From: Squalus acanthias
Lineage: Eukaryota
Assembly (NCBI GenBank): GCA_030390025.1
Contig: CM059432.1
Span: 43,092,001 to 43,156,000 of the forward strand
Length of the DNA: 64,000 nucleotides
Reading direction: 5' to 3'
Below are positions 5,067 through 36,149 of this stretch, one piece after another. Numbering within the stretch: the first letter of the stretch is position 1; each line of letters starts with the position of its first letter. Position numbers and translations under genes: made by a program. The notes beneath the pieces are model-generated. The model saw nothing but the letters and a program-made list of their open reading frames with translations. It searched no databases and was not told the origin of the DNA.

Positions 5067-5520
5067 TCTTCGGTCAATAGCTGGAGTAGTATGCAGTACC
5101 AGAGAATTCCACCTGAGGCAGTAAGGGTATCACCCAGCAGAAGGACAACCCCATCCAATCTACCCCCTCCTATGATTGCAGTACATCAGCTTACTTTTTT
5201 TGTAAATTGTTAGATCATTCAGTATCAAATCAGACTGGTTTGGCAGACATGGATGGTATTCAAAAGCCTGTTGCTATTCTAGAATAAAGGCAGGACAATG
5301 ATAATTGTGTTGCAGATAAATGCCAGAGACTGCCAACTTGTGCAGGTTGCACCTTTATATGAGATTGCAAAGTGTTGTAAGGACCAGGAAACCCAATTAC
5401 ACTGGCTTTTGATCTTAGGGTAAATTTAGTGATCCTGCACTGCCAACGGGGAGCCCCAGTCAATGCTGTGACTACCACAACTAGTACTGCTACTGCTACT
5501 ATGATGACTACTTTGATGTG

Positions 5521-25939: not shown

Positions 25940-27480
25940 ATAAAAACAGAAAATGCTGGAAATATTCAGCAGGTCAGGCAGCATCTGTGGAGAGAGAAAC
26001 AGAGTTAATGTTTCAGGTCGATGACCTTTCGTCAGAACTGGATAAAGTTATAGATGTAACAGATTTTAAGCAAGTGCAGGGGCAGGGAAAAGGGGAGGGG
26101 AGGAAAGAACAAGAGGGAAGATCTGTGATAGGATGGAAGGCAGGAGAGATTAAATGACAAAAGGGATGATGGTGCAAGGCAAAAGGAGGTGGTAATGGGA
26201 CAAGTTAAGAAACAAAAGATGAGTCTAGATGAGGTGTAAATGGGAATGGTAGAATCATCAATAGCTGCCATCTGAAATAATAGGGGCAGGGATTATGGTC
26301 TGAAATTGTTGAACTCAATGTTGAGTCCAGAAGGCTGTTAAGTGCCTAATCGAAAGATGAGGTGTCATTCCTCGAGCTTATGTTGAGCTTCGTTGGAACA
26401 GTGTAAGAGGCCGAGGATGGAGAGGTCAGAGTGAGACTGGAGTGGAGAATTAAAATGACAGGTGACCGGAAGCTCAGGGTCATGCTTATGGACTGAATGG
26501 AGGTGTTCCGCAAAGCAGTCACCCAATCTGCGTTTGGTCTCCCCAATGTAGAGGAGACCACACCGTGAGCAGCGAATACAGTATACTAAATTGCAAGAAG
26601 TACAAGTAAATCGCTGTTTCACCTGGAAGGAGTGTTTGGGGCCCTGGACAGTGGGAAGGGAGGGCAGGTGTTGCATCTCCTGAGCTTGCAGGGGAAGATG
26701 CCGTGGGAAGGGAAGGGGGTGTTTGGGATGATTGAGGAGTGGACCAGGGTGTCACAGAGGGAATGCTGAAAGGGGAGGTGAGGGGAAGATGTGTTTGGTG
26801 GTGGGGTCATGCTGGAGGTGGCAGAAATGGCGGAGGATGATCCGTTGAATGTGGAGGCTGGTGGGGTGAAAGGTGAGGACAAGGAGAACCCTATCATGGT
26901 TCTGGGAGGGAGGGGAAGGGGTGAGAGCAGAAATGCGGGAAATAGAATGGACACGGTCAAGGGCCGTGTCAACTACGGTAGAGGGGAATCCTCGGTTGAG
27001 GAAAAAGGAAGACATATCAGAAGCACTATTATGGAAGGTGGCATCGTCAGAGCAGATGTGATGGAGAGGGAGAAACTGGGAGAATGGAATAGAGTCATTA
27101 CAGGAAGCGGGGTGGGAGGAAGTGTAGTCCAGGTAGCTATGGGAGTCAGTGGGCTTATAGTGGATGTTTGTCAATAGCCTATCTACAGAGATGGAGACAG
27201 AGAAGCCGAGGAAGGGAAGGGAAGCATCGGAGATGGACTATGTGAAGGTGAGAGAATAGTACTATTTGGAGAAAAAGTAAATGAAATTTTCTAGTTCAGA
27301 ACGAGAGCAGGAAACGGCGTCAATACAGTCATTAATGTACCGGAAAAAGGGGTGAGGGAGGGGACCTGAGTAGGACTGGAACAAAGAATGTTCCACATAT
27401 CCCACGAAAAGGCAGGCATAGCTAGGACCCATGTGGTTTCCCATAGCAACACCTTTAATTTGGAGGAAGTGAGTGGCATC
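25940..27480 (-). mobile_element. Penelope-like retroelement, 3' part (RT C-terminus, GIY-YIG endonuclease, terminal repeat)
   Basis: GVAMG..GPSYACLFVG..FRYINDC (RT), HYKPTDSHSYLDYTSSHP, FTCTSCNLVYCIRCSRCGLLYIGETKRRL..EH (GIY-YIG). Interrupted by the provirus. Confidence 0.92.
26003..26039 (-). ncRNA. Minimal type I hammerhead ribozyme motif (Penelope terminal repeat), degenerate
   Basis: Minus strand agtt-CTGACGA-aaggtcatcgacct-GAAA-catt-aact. Confidence 0.55.
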
Positions 27481-28666
27481 TGTAGCACCAGCTTTCTGGC
27501 TATTTTTATGAATCATATTTTATATCCAAAACCCAAGAAAGAACTGTACTGTTGGGTAAGCTTGTGGGAGTGGCTTAGGGAATAGGATTGCAAGCCAGGC
27601 TACCCTGACTAAGGTGCATTCATATGCAAATGGCCATCTCACACTGACAGGCTGGGTGGAAGGGAACCCAGGCCGATTGACATCATCACCATCTAACATG
27701 ATTACTGGGAACAATACCCCTAGAGGTAACTCAGAGACACTATGCCCTCACATCAATAAAGCTCAGTCCCAACCAAAACTGGTGGAAGGCAGGAGATGGC
27801 CAGGCCATTGTCTTCCAGGAGATAAGCTAGTTAAGAAAGTTCGGTTTGAGATTGAAACCCATTACCTGCTAATGGGGGCCATCAACTCAGGAAACGACAG
27901 ACATCCAGTAATCAGCACTCATTGTCTCTCCAGGTGCCAGGCCTGGGAGCGGGGAAACGGAATATCATTTTACACAAAGTTTTCAAAGGTCATGAGTTAC
28001 TCCAGGCCACAGGAGGGTCCAGACAGATCACCTGAGTCAATACATCGATCAGCATTGACGGGAGAAAAGGTGTTGGGTTTTGGGTATATCAGGAGCCGTT
28101 CGGGGGCTGCTCTCTCTCTCTCTTCTCCTCGGCATCAATCTACAGCGAGTCTCCCGAGTGGGGCTTGGCTCGACGGAACACCGCCAGAAGCTGAGCGCTG
28201 CTCTTCATCCCTCATCAACGGACCTCGACTCAAACTGGAACTTGGATATCACGTCGGCGGTATGGAACCAGGAGCGAGACGTACAGGAAGAAGCTGCAAG
28301 CAAGACAACGGACAATCGGGGTGAGCATTTTGCCTGCACCTACACATTCACAAGACCACTTAGCTGTGTGAGGGGGTGACTGTAAGTCCCAACCAAACCT
28401 CAGAGGGGTTTAGTGCTGGGGTCCTGTGTTAGTTTATTTCACGGGAGGGTTCTTTTATTAGACTGTGGTAATTTAGCACGGTATGGCTTGTTGGACAAGC
28501 CAGGATTGTATTGTTTTGTACTGTTGCGAGTGTCATTGTTAATCCTATTAAACACAATACAGTTGAGCTCAAATGGGTGTCCGAGTCTGATCTGTCCATA
28601 TAATCCCTATCGTCCAGAACTTGTAGTAAGAGGTGTGTTGTCGGTGTGCCCGAGAAAACCCTTACA
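27481..28666 (+). repeat. 5' LTR (1186 bp)
   Basis: TGTAGCACC...CCCTTACA. Direct repeat of 33358-35281. Confidence 0.95.
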
Positions 28667-28671
28667 GAGAT

Positions 28672-28689
28672 TGGCGACCGCTGGCAGGA
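28672..28689 (+). promoter_or_regulatory. Primer binding site TGGCGACCGCTGGCAGGA
   Basis: TGG start 5 nt after the LTR end. Primer tRNA not resolved (Arg- or Ser-like). Confidence 0.75.
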
Positions 28690-28710
28690 TGATAGATTTT
28701 GTGTCAGATC

Positions 28711-30385
28711 ATGGACAGTTTTAAGGGCAAGAGGCCCGGAATGGAGGATAGGATTTCCTCCTAGGTGTTCAATAAGATTAACGTGTCTCAGTCATGGGTG
28801 CTGGAGATGCTGCGCTCTGAGAGTCCCCGGGATAGGGCTGCAGAGTGGACAGGTAGCAGGGATCACAGGAAGTCAAAGGAGAAAGCGATTTGGCTCCTGT
28901 GTCTGCAGAAGCAAGTTCAACTGCTCAGGGAGTGGGTTGAAAAGCTAGGGAACGAACTTAAAGAGTCTGAGGATAAGTCAGACGCGAGGGAGATAGTCGG
29001 GAGTAGACTATTAGAGGAACTGCACGAAGAAAGGCAGGAAAGACGTGCGCAAGAAGGGACCTCCCGTAACACGGTTGAATACCTACAGTGTCAGGTTACA
29101 GAGGCCAAGTTAAACCAGCAGGCCCTACGGGAAGAAAATGCGAGGCTAATAGCAACAGCTGACAGCTTGGAGGGCCAGCTAAGGGATATAAATATAGCTT
29201 ATAAAGTAGCCAGGAGTAGAGGCTATGAGGAAGCAGATCACGGACAATGTAAGGAAAGGATCCAAAAATTGACCCAAGCCTTGTCCGGAGCCAGAGGTAT
29301 GGCCTGTTTAATGTCACCGGGGGAAACCGGGGTAGACTGGGACAAGGAGGGTCAGGAGCCTGATGATAGGGCTCAGGACAGGGAAGTCCGACAGGCGCCT
29401 GAAGCGCCACCGAGACCAATGTGGCCTCTGCGGCAGCAGAAGTCCGGTCCACCCGCACCAAACGGTGACCAGGGCCCACTGCAGAGCGATTACGTGGTCC
29501 CGTACACAATCCCTCAGCTGCAAGCCATGCTATCAGGGACGCCCAAGCTCAAACGGGACAGGGACCCCTCAGTTCACTTTATGGAAGTAGAACAGGTAGG
29601 GGGGGTCAACGGATGTAGTGAGGGCGAGATCAACAGGCTGATGCTGTTCTCCCTTGATGGGGGATTGTATCAGAGCTTATCTGCAGCCACAAAGCTGGGA
29701 GGGGGCACCACAGAGGGGTTGAAAGACGAGATCCTGAGGGCCTTGGGGCATACCCAGGGTAGCCCGTTCTTACAAGTAGAATGGACCAGGCAGCTGGCCG
29801 GCGAGGCACCAGTTGCATTCGCGGACAGGCTATGGCCTGTGTACATAAAGGCAACTGGAGGGACGCTTGACCGCGCGCAGTTGATAGGGGCCCCCAGGAA
29901 TCACTGGCTCAGGGTCCTTGTGGCGAACAGCTTGCCAAGGATCAGGGTCAGGGCAGAAGCGTGGTTTGACCCCAAGGACCTCGTGAATATGGAGGCAGGC
30001 GTGCTCAGAAAGCTGAGTCTAGCCTTTAAGGCCGATTCCGGGAAGGAGGTCAAATCAAAGGGAAGGGTCCACAAAATGAAAGCCAGTGTGGGTAATAGGA
30101 AGGAATGGCGACAGGAAAGGGTTAGTACTGACACGTCCAGGACTAGTTTCGGGTGTGGGAAGACGGAACACTGGAGGCAAGACTGCCCGTTCCCAAAAGG
30201 GGGGAGACCAGTCCCAGGGGGTCCTCCAGTGCAAACCACGTGTTACAGAGGCAGAGGGGACGACCGACGAGTCGTTCGAGCTTCTGGTGGCCGCCCTACG
30301 GAAGACTATGGGGAAGGACAAAGGCAAGTTAGACGCTGCCGTGAGCAGTGAAGCGCCTTCCGCGCCCGTACGCCCCCCACCCTGA
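28711..30385 (+). pseudogene. gag: gag (coiled-coil N-terminus, capsid-like core, degenerate CCHC knuckle, PSAP)
   Basis: ATG 28711 is in frame with the 528-aa ORF, with a stop at 28762. Knuckle SFGCGKTEHWRQDC (30145-30186, first Cys TGT>AGT). Inferred 1-nt frameshift ~30235 leads to ...SEAPSAPVRPPP-TGA. Confidence 0.8.
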
Positions 30386-32372
30386 CTAGAACGCGCCCAG
30401 CCTGAGTACCTGTGCCCGCTCACGTACGATGAGTGGGGCAGGCCCTGTGTAAAGATGGGGGTGAAGACGGTGCAGGGGAAATATTTGGTGGACACCGGGG
30501 CTTCCAGAACAGTGGTCCATTCAAAAAACCCGACCAATTCACCCTGGTCTAGCAGGGTCCCATTCAGGCTCGTGGGGTTCACAGGGAATGAGCAGGCTGG
30601 GGCAATCTCAAAACCCCTGGCCATAGAACTAGGATCCCTCCATACCACGTGGGAGTGTGTCCTGATACAATGGGAACAGCCAGGATCAGGAGTCCTCGGG
30701 GCTGACTTTATGTTAGCCAGCCGAGTGATTGTGGATTTAAGGAATCACTGCCTATGGGGTGCAGCGGATTCAGATAAAGCCGAGGAGGTGCTAGTGATCC
30801 CAAGAGATAGGGAAGGAAGGGGTAGTGTGTGTACTATGAAGCCCAAGGGGAATTACGACCTAGAGCAGTTGGTCTGTAATACCCCAGCCAAGTATCAGGT
30901 GAACGTGCGGGACAACCTCGCCGCATTCGCCACTCACAAGCACGACTGTGGCAGGGTGACAGGGGTAGAAGTCAGGGTGCAAGGGGACCCCATGTCACGG
31001 CCACAGAAACAGTACAGTTTCCCCAGAGAGGCAGAAGCCGACTTAGAGACGGCACTGGGATCCCTCGTAGAACAGGGGGTGTTGAGGCCGATAGCCACCC
31101 ACGTAAACTCACCACTTTGTCCAGTTAAGAAGCCCGACCAGTCGTGGAGAGCCACCGTGGACTATCGAGTGCTCAATAAAAATATCCCAGCCTGCGCGCC
31201 CACAGTCGCGGCTGTTGCTGACCTCATAGGGAGCATTCCAGCGACCGCAACCACGTTCACAGTGCTGGATATCTCCAATGGGTTCTGGTCGGTTCCCCTC
31301 AAACGGGAAGACCAGTACAAATTTGCCTTTACATTTAAAGGGCAACAGTACACCTGGACATGCCTTCCCCAGGGGTTTCACAACAGCCCCTCCATATTTC
31401 ACCAGTGTATGGCCGACGCACTCAAAGGCTTCAGCCGACCCCACCAGCTAATTCAGTATGTGGACGACTTGCTTTTGTTCTCCGCGGTGGCGGAGGAGCA
31501 CAGGCCACTGCTGGACGAGCTGTTGAGGCTGTTACGGGAGACAGGGTTTAAAGTGAACTCAAAGAAAGCCCAGATCGGTCGGGAGGAAGTCAAATTCCTC
31601 GGGCTGACCATGAGGGCTGGTGAGCGAGCGATAGATGAGGCAAAAAGAAAGGCAGTACAGGAGTTACCAGCGCCCAAGGATGTAACAGGGGTAAGGTCCT
31701 TCCTGGGACTCACAGGGTACTGCAGAGACTTTATAGAGGGTTACGCAGCCACGGCAGCCCCTCTGCTTCAGCTCCTCCGCAAGGGAGTCGGGTGGGAGTG
31801 GGACCAGAACTGCCAGGAAGCGTTCACCCGCCTCAAGGAGAATTTACAGACGGCACCCGCGTTGGGAGCCATTTACAGTAGTGAGGAATTCCTTTTGGAG
31901 GTAGCAGCCAGCGGGGATAGCTTGAGCGCGGTGTTGCTCCAGGAGCGGCACGGCAAGCTAGGACCCGTGGTCTACTCCTCAAGGGTTCTCACTGAGGTAG
32001 AAAGGGGATACTCCAACTGCGAGAGGCATCTCCTAGCCACGTACTGGGCCGTAAAGCTCTCCCAGCTCTTTACGGAATCATCCCTGATAACTTTACGAAC
32101 TCACCACACCCCCACTCAGATGTTGTTAGACGGGAGGATAAAGGACGGAACAGTGAGCAGTTCCCGTATTGCTCGCTGGACTTTATTGCTCTCGCAAATG
32201 AATCAGAGTGCAGGGGTTGACAGAGCCAAAGCTGGCTATGAATTTAATCTACCCAGGGACTGCCCATGCGTGTACTGTAGAAGGGGTGTGGGACGTAGGT
32301 GTGGTATTCCGGGCCGGGATACACCCGACAGGCCGGGACATCTCCGTAGAGGGGTCCAGTTCGGTGGTGGGC
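30386..32372 (+). pseudogene. pol: pro-pol: aspartic protease, RT, tether (inactive RNase H), start of second RNase H; integrase deleted
   Basis: GRP..LVDTGAS..VLGADF (protease). NSP..PVKK..WR..VDYR..LDISNGFW..LPQGFHNSP..YVDD..FLG (RT). Tether LEVAAS/ERHLLA/LRTHH. After an apparent 2-nt deletion ~32200, RDISVEGSS. Confidence 0.92.
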
Positions 32373-32384
32373 AGGTCACAGCGG

Positions 32385-33150
32385 CCAGCACCGGTATACC
32401 GGGTAGAAAACATTGGCGTCCTGAGGATAGGGGTGCACGTGCGGCATAATGGGGCCCCACCGTTTGTAATAAAGTGGGAGCACGCCATGACCGGCACTGA
32501 CCTCAAGGGGTGCCAGAGCAGGGGCGCGCACGTGGTGTTGTGTCCCCAGCACCTGAACGCGTTCGATCGACCGGTGTGTGGGTTTGAATCGGAAAGTGCA
32601 GAGCCCATCAAATGCACCATGGAGGTGATGGCCCAGGGCCACGTTCCACCCCAGATAGCATACACGAACAACGGACGTACTGCGTCACGACGAGTGTGGA
32701 CCAGTATCGGGTACACCACGACACTTGGTGCCCTGTCACTGACAAAACTTTCTGCTTCAAACCCCACACAGAGGTTCAGGTGGCGCAAGGGCGCATCATC
32801 CCCATTTCAGATTTCACCACGGTACACTCACGGTGAACGACACGGTACAGGACCTGCAGCAATACGTAACACGGTTCAGGTATGAAATTCCTCCTCTGCC
32901 TGAACACCTCACAAAACTAATGAAGAAAGTTGAACTGTCTCAAAAACACTTCTACACCCTCGAATAATGGAACAGGGAAGTGGGGGAAGAAATAGAAGAA
33001 ATGGCTTCCCCGCCCTGGTGGGACTTTGATTTGAATGTTGAGATCCCTCCATGGATCCGAATAGTTTCACACACAATGGTAGTAGTAAAACTATTCATGG
33101 TGTTGTACCTGTTAAGGTTATCCTGTAAAAAGAGAAGGAAAGCACTCTGA
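32385..33150 (+). pseudogene. env: env, C-terminal half of a Cys-rich fusion glycoprotein with TM anchor
   Basis: Reconstructed across two frameshifts and one stop: DLKGC..VVLCP..VCG..IKC..TYCVTT..WCP..TFCF..VNDT..helical LTKLMKKVELSQKHFYTLE..PPWW..hydrophobic IVSHTMVVVKLFMVLYLL followed by CKKRRK. Confidence 0.75.
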
Positions 33151-33346
33151 AATCATTCGGAGGCCCTAATAAAAGGGTAACCAGGAGTTGTACTGCCTGT
33201 AAATATGGCGAATTGAATTGTTATAAGAAACGGGACCCCAGGTGTAATTGATAAGTAATGTACAGTTTGGTCGAGACCCACAATGTGCCTCCCGCAGCAG
33301 AAGACGACAAAATCCGTGATATTTCTGGTTTTGGTGACGAAATATC

Positions 33347-33357
33347 AAAGGGGGGAA
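33347..33357 (+). promoter_or_regulatory. Polypurine tract AAAGGGGGGAA
   Basis: Directly abuts the 3' LTR TG. Confidence 0.9.
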
Positions 33358-35281
33358 TGCAGCATCAGCTTTCTGGCCATTTTTATGAATCATATTTTAT
33401 ATCCAAAACCCCAGAAAGAACTGTACTGTTGGGTAAGCTTGTGGGAGTGGCTCAGGGAATAGGATTGCAGGCCAGGCTACCCTGACTAAGGTGTATTCAT
33501 ATGCAAATGAACATCTCACACTGACAGGCTGGGTGGAAGGGAACCCAGGCCGATTGACATCATCACCATCTAACATGATTACTGGGAACAATACCCCAAG
33601 AGGTAACTCAGAGACACTATGCCCTCACATCAATAAAGCTCAGTCCCAACCGAAACTGGTGGAAGGCAGGAGATGGCCAGGCCATTGTCTTCCAGGAGAT
33701 AAGCCAGTTAAGCAAGTTCGGTTTGAGATTGAAACCCATTACCTGCTAATGGGGGCCATCAGGAAACGACAGACATCCAGTAATCAGCACTCATTGGCCC
33801 AGAAATTAAAGACTGAGTGTTGACGCGGGGGTAAGGCTTCCCCGCGATATCTCACTCCGCGCCTACCTTTTTCCTCCGGGCCCACACGAACATTAGTTTC
33901 AAGGCTGCAGCTGTGCAGTGCTTGCGTGACCCAGAGACGCAGTTAGTTCATGCGAGCTCTGGGATCACGTGATTCAGTTAGAGCCAATGGCAGCACACCA
34001 TCTTTCATTCATAGTTTTGACAGGAAGACCTGTCAAAGCTATGAATAATATACCCCCCCAAAAGAACAGCTAAACCTCAATTAAATTTTTAAAAAAGCCA
34101 TCACATTAATAAAATAAGTATAGTTAAATAAATTAACCACTTTAAACAAAAAATTAAATTTTTGAAAAAATTTCAAATCTTTTTAAAAGTTATAAAAATA
34201 AACTTACCTTTCTTTAAAGTCTCTAAAAAAGATAAACCTGTTGAAAAAATTTTAAAATAATACTTAATTAACTACTTACCTTGTTAAAAGAGGGTCTTAC
34301 GCCTCCTTTCTTTATGTGTAAAATCTTCCATGCTTACCTGCGCGTTCAAAGCACTAAGTGCACTGCATGCGCACAGCCTGTAGCGCGCACGCGGTTCACC
34401 TAGGAACCGCCCCCTTTTGAATTCACGAAGTGCCGGTTTCCCGCGCATGCGCAGTGCATGCTGGAAACCGGCAATTGGAGACCTAAAACGCGAGAGTACA
34501 CAGTGCGTACTCTCGCGTATTAGGTCTAATTTTCGGGCCATTGTCTCTCCAGGTGCCAGGTCTGGGAGCGGGGAAACGGAATATCATTTTTCACAAAGTT
34601 TTCAAAGGTCATGAGTCACTCACAGGGGGGTCCAGACAGATCACCTGAGTCAATACATCGATCAGCATTGACGGGAGAAAAGGTGTTGGGTTTTGGGTAT
34701 ATCAGGAGCTGTTCGGGGGCTGCGCTCTCTCTCTCTTCTCCTCGGCATCAATCTACAGCGAGTCTCCCGAGTGGAGCTCGGCTCAACGGAACACCGCCAG
34801 AAGCTGAGCGCTGCTCTTCATCCCTCATCAACAGGACCTCGACTCAAACTGGAACTTGGATATCACGTCAACGGTACGGAACCAGGAGCGAGACGTACAG
34901 GAAGAAGCTGCAAGTGAGACAACGGACAATCGGGGTGAGCATTTTGCCTGCGCCTACACATCCACAAGACCACTTAGCTGTGTGAGGGGGTGACTGTAAG
35001 TCCCAACCAAACCTTAGAGGGGTTTAGTGCTGGGGTCCTGTGTTAGTTTATTTCACGGGAGGGTTCTTTTATTAGACCGTGGTAATTTAGCACGGTATGG
35101 CTTGTTGGACAAGCCAGGGTTGTATTGTTTTGTACTGTTACGAGTGTCATTGTTAATCCTATTAAACACAATATGGTTGAGCTCAAACGGGTGTCCGAGT
35201 CTGATCTGTCCATATAATCCCTATCGTCCAGAACTTGTAGTAAGAGGTGTGTTTTCGGTGCGCCCGAGAAAACCATTTACA
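33358..35281 (+). repeat. 3' LTR (contains MITE 33796-34539)
   Basis: TGCAGCATC...CCATTTACA. Collinear with the 5' LTR once the MITE is removed. Confidence 0.95.
33796..34539. mobile_element. Harbinger-type MITE family X, copy B, inserted in the 3' LTR
   Basis: TIR GGCCCAGAAATT / AATTTTCGGGCC. TSD ATT. Empty site (ctcATTgtctctcc) present in the 5' LTR. Confidence 0.93.
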
Positions 35282-35570
35282 CGTCAAAGGAGAAATTGTT
35301 CAATGTGAGAACAAGTTCAGCCAGGCAGAGGAGGGTGGTGGTGGATGGGGACTGGTTGGGCCTCTGTTCAAGGAAGAAGCGGAGCGCCCTCAGGCTGTCC
35401 TGGTGGGGGATGGAGGTGTAGAGGGATTGGACGTCCATAGTGAAAAGAAGACGTTTGGGGCCAGGAAACTGAAAACTGTCAAAGTGGCGGAGGGCGTCGG
35501 AAGAGTCGCGGATGTAGGTGGAAAGAGACTGGACGAGGGGAGAAAAAATAGAGTCGAGATAGGAAAAAAT
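35282..35570 (-). mobile_element. Penelope RT, upstream part (continuation of 25940-27480)
   Basis: YIRDSSDAL..LLFTMDVQSLYTSIPH..LAELVLTLNNFSF. Confidence 0.9.
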
Positions 35571-36149
35571 TATTAAATTTTTAAAGATTTGTTGGTTTAT
35601 CTTTAAAATGTGCATGGAGAGCTTGCGTGAACAGATCAGAAGTAAAGCCATGCAGGTGACTGATGGCGTAGTTTCATGGAAAGTTTCGACAGAATTTTGT
35701 CATTTTTCCCGAGGAAATTCGTGTGTAACTGATCTACAGCAATTTTATGCCAAAACATTGCTACCAGCAAATTTACTCGAGCATATGCGCCGCTCCCTAG
35801 TTCCAATCACCAAAATCATACTTAGCTCATTAACATAGCTCCACCATCCATGCAAAAGACCAGAGAATGTGAGTTTCCTGCATTTACGTCAGTTCTGATG
35901 GGTGTAAATTTACGCCTAAATTTTATGCACAGTAGAATCTGAAGTCACTATTTCTGATGGTTTACAGCAAAGTTTTGAGCTATTTTGTTCTGTTTCTCCT
36001 TTGTGAGACCTCTATTGTATTTTCTATATCTTTGAATGCCTTTTTATGGTGTCAGAAAAATGTTACATTAAAAATTAATGAGAAAAGCTTCCACAATTGC
36101 ATTTTCTTAAACATGCCGTGCTTAATGTGCACAAATGATAGTTTGATGG

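Follow-up and report, generated by a model that had tools for sequence, protein, structure and literature searches.

What kind of retrovirus left the provirus that lies near the middle of a 64,000-nucleotide stretch of Squalus acanthias DNA (contig CM059432.1, positions 43,092,001 to 43,156,000; hereafter the window)? An earlier note on this DNA had read it as a member of the lokiretrovirus lineage in a cartilaginous fish. We followed up that reading by computation and arrived at a different answer: with a probability of roughly 0.8, the provirus is an old, defective germline copy of an abundant elasmobranch endogenous retrovirus (ERV) family, which belongs by its reverse transcriptase (RT) to the canonical Retroviridae and forms a deep clade with elements of coelacanth and frogs. 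The suggested addition of cartilaginous fish to the lokiretrovirus hosts is not upheld. The locus itself is of little consequence, being a dead copy of a repeat family; there is more to learn from the family, which is large and diverse and has close counterparts in frogs and coelacanth.

Reverse transcriptase phylogeny

The two RT motifs on which the earlier note relied, LPQGFHNSP and YVDD, are both present in the window copy (Table 1). The lokiretrovirus RTs printed in the supplement of PMC7947760 read PFGY[AS]NSPAEFN...IYVDDIL, whereas the RT of the shark family reads LPQGFHNSPSIF...QYVDDLLL, a reading shared by the related frog and coelacanth sequences. In two eel proteins (P0140, P0151) the published lokiretrovirus motif recurs nearly letter for letter, and these were our lokiretrovirus rows.

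We built a careful tree from the RT and the adjoining tether domain (64 rows, 393 columns). Its reference viruses came from IMG/VR and were identified from length and Pfam content only: a 10,688-nt record of the size of snakehead retrovirus (SnRV), a record of the size of walleye dermal sarcoma virus (WDSV), four gammaretrovirus-like records and five foamy-like records. The length of the 10,688-nt record equals that of the published SnRV sequence, and it was taken as SnRV on its length and Pfam content. Pfam searches of two gamma and two foamy records found gamma and foamy Gag and Env families. The tree left out two deltaretrovirus-sized records (L081, L086) and the record L083, all three with matches to only part of the RT query, and rows shorter than 250 or longer than 520 residues (P0006, P0010, P0011, P0033, P0126, P0131).

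Results placed the shark family among the canonical retroviruses and not with the lokiretroviruses. The 44 canonical-type rows, shark family included, were split from the two lokiretrovirus-motif rows and Gypsy with a support of 100/99. The canonical clade (100/99) holds the gamma, WDSV-sized, SnRV-sized and foamy references together with the shark family, and the shark, P0003, coelacanth and frog sequences form a clade with a support of 93/92. All 18 Gypsy/Tat rows, among them an element with a Baculo_F env, fell apart from the shark family (100/99). A class I clade that includes the WDSV-sized record and a catshark element (97/94) excludes the shark family, and the five foamy references lie apart on a long branch of their own. 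When the shark family and the lokiretrovirus rows were joined as one clade, the approximately unbiased (AU) test rejected the arrangement (lnL -28.7, p-AU 0.029).

Similarity scores were also compared. Over the RT-tether region the SnRV-sized record scored highest of the reference viruses (253 bits), ahead of the WDSV-sized record (218), the gamma records (184-198) and the foamy records (174-183). Among 159 RT hits the two lokiretrovirus rows came 26th and 28th, and among 142 integrase hits 65th and 111th; for the tether they ranked 12th and 86th, and for RNase H 11th and 26th. The RT motifs, the 100/99 split and the AU test do not support lokiretrovirus membership. Membership of Ty3/Gypsy, errantiviruses included, is likewise contradicted by the 100/99 split from the 18 Gypsy/Tat rows and by the dual RNase H.

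Envelope, Gag and priming in the family

The assembly of S. acanthias that contains the window (3.71 Gb) holds many copies of the family. Its Pol gave 72 scored matches that were 75-100% identical to the window Pol (27 of the 72 without a stop in the matched stretch), env gave 72 matches at 61-100% identity to the Env query from copy L019, and an LTR (long terminal repeat) segment gave 1054 first-look candidates, with all 40 scored copies at 93-96% identity; each of these counts is a lower bound. The proteins nearest to Pol were frog 'NYNRIN-like' sequences (43-46% identity) and a Latimeria sequence (38%), and no named exogenous retrovirus was returned among the protein-search matches to the family. 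Named Env relatives came from five sharks and rays: Pristiophorus, Mustelus, Chiloscyllium, Heterodontus and Rhinoraja. These, together with exons collinear with a horn-shark fbxo15 protein (80-89% identical in the best three segments, 59% in two others), bear out the cartilaginous-fish host that the earlier note had supposed.

Two of the hallmarks named in that note, an inactive RNase H followed by a second one and a fusion-type Env, were found complete in other family copies; neither is intact in the window. Pol of the fuller copy L014 matches RVT_1, RT_RNaseH, RNase_H (PF00075, residues 650-793), Integrase_H2C2 and rve in Pfam. The window holds the tether, but its second RNase H is down to about 13 residues out of about 144. 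We read the first RNase H-like domain as a dead tether because, in a HMMER alignment to Ty3 RNase H, two of the positions that we take to be its catalytic carboxylates read A and H. Judging from the fuller copies, the family would have replicated as a simple retrovirus with a Pol order of protease (PR), RT, dead tether RNase H, active-type RNase H and integrase (IN).

The Env frames of fuller copies are 782-788 aa long. They have a signal peptide and an RQRR site, after which come a hydrophobic stretch, a long heptad region, a Cys-rich part (about 250 residues), another heptad region and finally a membrane anchor. Only the C-terminal third persists in the window, broken into three frames. Env compared with Pfam and PDB sequences gave nothing usable, and PF00523 had no match in any of 51 Env family members (Pfam, E up to 10); a weak Baculo_F match (E 0.0011) was located in a chimeric horn-shark gene model. 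An AlphaFold2 model from the 51 sequences had a mean pLDDT of 60, with well-predicted stretches at about residues 235-310 and 420-650. Searched with Foldseek against the PDB, this model matched paramyxovirus F first (E 6e-11) and gave 227 matches at E 0.001 or better. VIA alignment of residues 244-651 gave Z of 12-14 over 317-358 aligned residues in the first 20 rows, and the 50 listed entries were without exception paramyxo- or pneumovirus F proteins; no foamy Env structure was among those 50 entries or the Foldseek matches listed. In BFVD the model matched the Env of WEHV-1 (a walleye epidermal hyperplasia virus; 8e-13), WDSV Env (8e-11) and feline foamy gp130 (3e-4), and also arli-, lispi- and chu-like virus glycoproteins and baculovirus F. 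On these predicted structures, the core of the family Env is of the paramyxo-/pneumovirus F fold, and the 782-aa Env would carry a signal peptide, a furin-type RQRR site and a fusion subunit of that architecture.

Profile-profile comparison connected this Env to those of the reference viruses. With hhalign, the Env profile matched the SnRV-sized Env at 90.4% over 290 columns, which include the cleavage site and heptad repeat A, and the WDSV-sized Env at 95.8% over 191 columns; against an alignment of foamy Envs the probability was 48%. Since the epsilonretrovirus, SnRV-sized and foamy Envs match too, an F-like Env is not specific to lokiretroviruses. A separate, weak Ig_3 match lies at Env residues 85-167 (L023:384-2729; E 0.014, 4 of 51 family members), where the model is poor, and a bamboo-shark Env relative is annotated as 'Ig-like domain-containing protein'.

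The long N-terminal coiled-coil region of Gag described in the earlier note found support. Residues 36-176 are helix-prone (63% E/K/R/Q/L/A), and their heptad (3.5-residue) periodicity was reached by 0.55% of 2000 shuffles, a periodicity test rather than the output of a dedicated coiled-coil predictor. The single CCHC knuckle is full in the Gag of relatives; the window copy has lost the first Cys (S-x2-C-x4-H-x4-C), and its Pfam scores fall under threshold. Gag of the family would have a helical N-terminal region and one CCHC knuckle. In the ESM Atlas the nearest clusters to this Gag were all of the generic retrotransposon and PEG10 type (0.93 to 0.83).

At the gag-pol boundary, all seven copies compared (the window, L013, L014, L015, L016, L018 and L020) have an in-frame stop followed by CTAG, the stop being TGA in six and TAA in one. 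This regularity indicates that Gag-Pol is made by read-through. In vertebrate genes a stop codon followed by CUAG strongly favours read-through, and Gag-Pro-Pol of the family was probably expressed by read-through in this context. In the SnRV-sized and WDSV-sized records the in-frame stop is TAG, with no CTAG after it. Because the C-terminus of Gag in relatives lies in the pol frame, the window gag must be frameshifted past its knuckle.

The primer-binding site (PBS) and polypurine tract noted earlier were both confirmed (Table 1). The PBS begins five bases past the end of the 5' LTR, and its variants among seven family copies converge on TGGCGACCGCGGCAGGAC. The complement of its tRNA part had 433 matches in the genome, and ARAGORN called tRNA-Arg (tcg) at all three of the loci examined among them; reverse transcription would accordingly have been primed by tRNA-Arg(TCG), as the fuller copies suggest. 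On one contig (C26, about 38.99-41.88 Mb; loci L048 and L052), tRNA-Arg(TCG) genes, each with a tRNA-Ser(GCT) gene after it, are repeated in long tandem arrays whose period is about 1.62 kb. The SnRV-sized record (L063) has the PBS TGGCGAGCCAGCCAGGAG, which differs from the TCG-type PBS of the shark family; the PBS of SnRV presumably also reflects priming by an arginine tRNA. Its complement had 108 scattered matches in the shark genome (e.g., L104-L110) versus 2 for a reversed control, and no tRNA gene was found at the seven loci examined. Such matches may belong to a repeat or serve other ERV families as primer sites.

Weighing the alternatives

How the family relates to SnRV bears on whether it is new in kind. 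SnRV-like elements are the main coelacanth ERV type and occur in amphibians, zebrafish and lamprey (Hayward et al. 2015, in the summary of PMC4977317); the elephant-shark CmiERV lineage I is described as clustering with SnRV (Han 2015, PMC4422223), and in PMC12193657 SnRV is the sole exogenous virus in a clade of ERVs from fish, amphibians, reptiles and birds. The shark family shares with SnRV a Gag with a CCHC knuckle and a Pol arranged as PR, RT, tether, RNase H, IN; with the SnRV-sized record an in-frame gag-pol stop and the top RT-tether score of the reference viruses; and with the SnRV-like clade a host set of coelacanth, frogs and cartilaginous fish. It differs in a Pol only 33% identical to that of the SnRV-sized record, in its PBS, in an Env of 782 aa against 1134 aa and in an LTR of 1.19 kb against 518 bp; no accessory ORFs (open reading frames) were seen in it. 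These data fit a member of an already known kind of fish and amphibian retrovirus, the likeness to published SnRV-like ERVs being one of host set.

Several results weigh against our reading. In the best tree the sister of the SnRV-sized record is class I (96/92) and not the shark clade, so that 'SnRV-like' is a label of similarity and host range and not a demonstrated sister relation; CmiERV lineage I and Hayward's SnRV-like ERVs were compared by their published host range only. The backbone of the careful tree is a polytomy, and a tree joining the shark clade with the SnRV-sized record was not rejected (p-AU 0.58 against a quick tree) but lay about 12 lnL units below the careful tree. The Env link to the SnRV-sized and WDSV-sized records comes from profile-profile comparison only: a plain hmmsearch of Env profiles against the reference-virus Envs matched neither record at E up to 10. 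The lokiretrovirus reference consisted of two near-identical proteins of one eel, labelled through their motif match to published sequences, and the AU test did not reject at 0.05 a tree that set the whole 13-row clade beside them (lnL -19.5, p-AU 0.088).

This last result would favor a lokiretrovirus or a sister lineage in cartilaginous fish, as would the dual RNase H, the F-like Env fold and an Env-core stretch that resembles the printed Loki-Lch Env (a likeness seen by eye, not computed). Wang & Han (PMC7947760) define lokiretroviruses by where the RT falls, by the presence of a tether and an RNase H, and by an Env that resembles PF00523 in sequence. The shark family agrees with them in its LTR-gag-pol-env order, tether and second RNase H, Integrase_H2C2 and Mononegavirales-F-type Env. 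The dual RNase H does not discriminate, however, because it is common to all retroviruses, and the two groups differ in RT lineage and motifs, the shark motifs being unlike all printed lokiretrovirus RTs. The lokiretrovirus rows also rank low for RT and IN, the shark Env is linked by profile to those of the SnRV-sized and WDSV-sized records, and none of its 51 members has the sequence-level PF00523 match that is reported for lokiretrovirus Env at 2.2e-7 (PMC7947760). That paper reports six chondrichthyan genomes screened and no lokiretrovirus found; one of the six, Chiloscyllium punctatum, carries the shark Env family. Together with the split and the AU rejection of the family joined to the lokiretrovirus rows, these results make a lokiretrovirus origin very unlikely. 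A foamy-like (class III, spuma-related) ERV is very unlikely as well. Foamy-like ERVs of cartilaginous fish have been described (Wang, Chen & Cui 2023, as cited in PMC11468914), and foamy Env likewise has an F-like core (PMC11468914). The best solved-structure match of the shark integrase was that of prototype foamy virus (PFV; 106 bits), and the top named BFVD match of the Pol model was equine foamy virus Pro-Pol (E 1.9e-44), in a search that showed no clear nearest virus and gave its highest identities to unnamed entries. PFV Gag has an N-terminal helical region, and so does the shark Gag. Against this stand the separate long branch of the foamy references, their scores below those of the gamma, epsilon and SnRV-sized records, an Env comparison that reached only 48%, and the lack of Pfam matches to Gag_spuma, Spuma_A9PTase and Foamy_virus_ENV in the shark family, although spuma families were found in the foamy records. 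The Gag type, priming tRNA and pol expression differ too: as described in PMC5210030, foamy Gag has no CCHC knuckle and class III elements mostly use tRNA-Lys, whereas relatives of the window copy have a full knuckle and join gag to pol through an in-frame stop.

A divergent epsilon-like (class I) ERV would account for the WDSV-sized Env being the best profile match, for RT motifs near those of WDSV, for the 4-bp target-site duplication (TSD) and for read-through of an in-frame gag-pol stop, as in the WDSV-sized record (L064); epsilonretroviruses (WDSV, WEHV) also have fish hosts and a related Env core. The shark family nevertheless lies outside the class I clade, lacks their accessory genes, has a much shorter Env and gave no Pfam match to MLVIN_C or Gag_p30, and we therefore hold this origin to be unlikely. 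A further, tentative possibility is that the shark, coelacanth and frog elements are not true relatives of SnRV but make up a deep branch of Retroviridae that has yet to be named, with an F-type Env that is common, and possibly ancestral, in retroviruses of aquatic vertebrates. If true, an F-type fusion protein would not be peculiar to lokiretroviruses and foamy viruses. We found no published statement of an F-type Env for SnRV or epsilonretroviruses in a literature search that left out most subscription journals. Our comparisons suggest that F-type envelopes are widespread among early-branching vertebrate retroviruses, which bears on how retroviruses acquire and exchange envelopes.

The window copy and its surroundings

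We return to the reading that we prefer, an old and defective copy of the elasmobranch family, and to how this copy came to its present state. Table 1 lists its features.

Table 1. Features of the provirus and its later insertion, in window coordinates (position 1 is the first letter of the 64,000 nucleotides).
Feature	Positions	Strand	Description	Basis or location
Left TSD copy	27477-27480	+	now CATC	
5' LTR	27481-28666	+	1186 bp, TG...CA ends	direct-repeat comparison
PBS	28672-28689	+	TGGCGACCGCTGGCAGGA, complementary to the host tRNA-Arg(TCG) 3' end, with an additional base here	
gag open frame	28765-30351	+	528 aa: helical N-terminal region (aa 36-176), capsid-like middle, degenerate knuckle; frameshifted past the knuckle	
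True gag C-terminal end	30080-30385	+	in pol frame, to in-frame TGA (30383-30385), then CTAG; gag-pol read-through site	
pol open frame	30386-32449	+	687 aa, then out of frame	
Protease	~30437-30712	+	weak match, RVP E 0.0031	Pfam
RT	31124-31609	+	RVT_1 E 2.3e-35	Pfam
Tether (dead RNase H)	31799-32197	+	RT_RNaseH_2 E 9.4e-21, RT_RNaseH E 1.8e-18	Pfam
Linker and start of second RNase H	32181-32372	+	first ~13 residues of the domain, other frame, ended by deletion	matches L014 Pol residues 599-662
Deletion junction	32362-32369	+	private internal deletion of ~3.54 kb, 8-bp microhomology	
env remnant	32364-33177	+	C-terminal third (core-domain end, heptad repeat B, transmembrane helix, tail), three frames with stops	
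Polypurine tract	33347-33357	+	AAAGGGGGGAA	directly before 3' LTR
3' LTR	33358-35281	+	1924 bp with later insertion counted, TG...CA ends	
Later 747-bp element	33792-34538	+	non-autonomous, with terminal inverted repeats, foreign to the provirus	inside 3' LTR
Right TSD copy	35282-35285	+	CGTC	

The paired LTRs that had been noted are genuine. Their global alignment showed 39 differences over 1175 shared positions (32 transitions and 7 transversions, with 11 of the 39 in CpG context), a Kimura two-parameter divergence of 0.034. This divergence of 3.4% corresponds to about 17 million years at 1e-9 substitutions/site/year, and to about 34 million years at the rate of 0.5e-9 that was taken for a catshark in PMC10699275.

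The provirus sits within a minus-strand Penelope-like element, whose GIY-YIG and RT frames are visible. The 4-bp TSD of the earlier note is imperfect as it stands, with three of four positions identical, but in all 11 uninterrupted copies of the host element that were examined the flanks are contiguous around a single [A/C]GTC, the empty site reading GAGTGG[A/C]GTCAAAGG. The duplication is thus real, and a later G-to-A change at CpG would explain the mismatch between its two copies. The Penelope-like element, split by the provirus, occupies 26365-27480 and 35282-35699 of the minus strand; a 200-bp probe from its flank gave 1009 first-look candidates, and 39 other scored copies were 94-96% identical.

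The largest change in the provirus is the internal deletion. Its junction joins positions 5096 and 8640 of L013, the closest copy (95% identical). When a 240-bp probe across the junction was searched against the genome, only the window copy among 40 scored matches spanned it; the other 39 stop at the 8-bp overlap, which shows the deletion to be private to the window copy. Lost with it were the rest of the second RNase H, the whole integrase and roughly two thirds of env, so that the window retains, of the 1302 residues of Pol, 1 to about 662 and, of the 782 residues of Env, about 501-761. Because of the deletion and the frameshifts, this copy is unable to make integrase, a working RNase H or Env; it is a dead provirus, internally deleted and frameshifted. 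The element integrated into the Penelope-like element and made the 4-bp duplication; it later lost 3.54 kb through a deletion at the 8-bp microhomology and suffered a transposon insertion into the 3' LTR and several frameshifts.

Fragments of the Env family were also seen at the start or end of host gene models of other sharks (P0056, P0062, P0070, P0082), namely a Niban-like protein, a cadherin, a zinc-finger protein and fbxo15 isoform X3. These fragments may be annotation artefacts or exonised pieces of proviruses.

The 747-bp insert in the 3' LTR ends in short inverted repeats that can be read as GCCC...GGGC or GGCCC...GGGCC, and its target duplication is ambiguous at 3 to 5 bp (ATT or CATTG). 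Forty full-length copies of this element were 98-99% identical, and 2792 first-look candidates were found, indicating that its family was mobile very recently.

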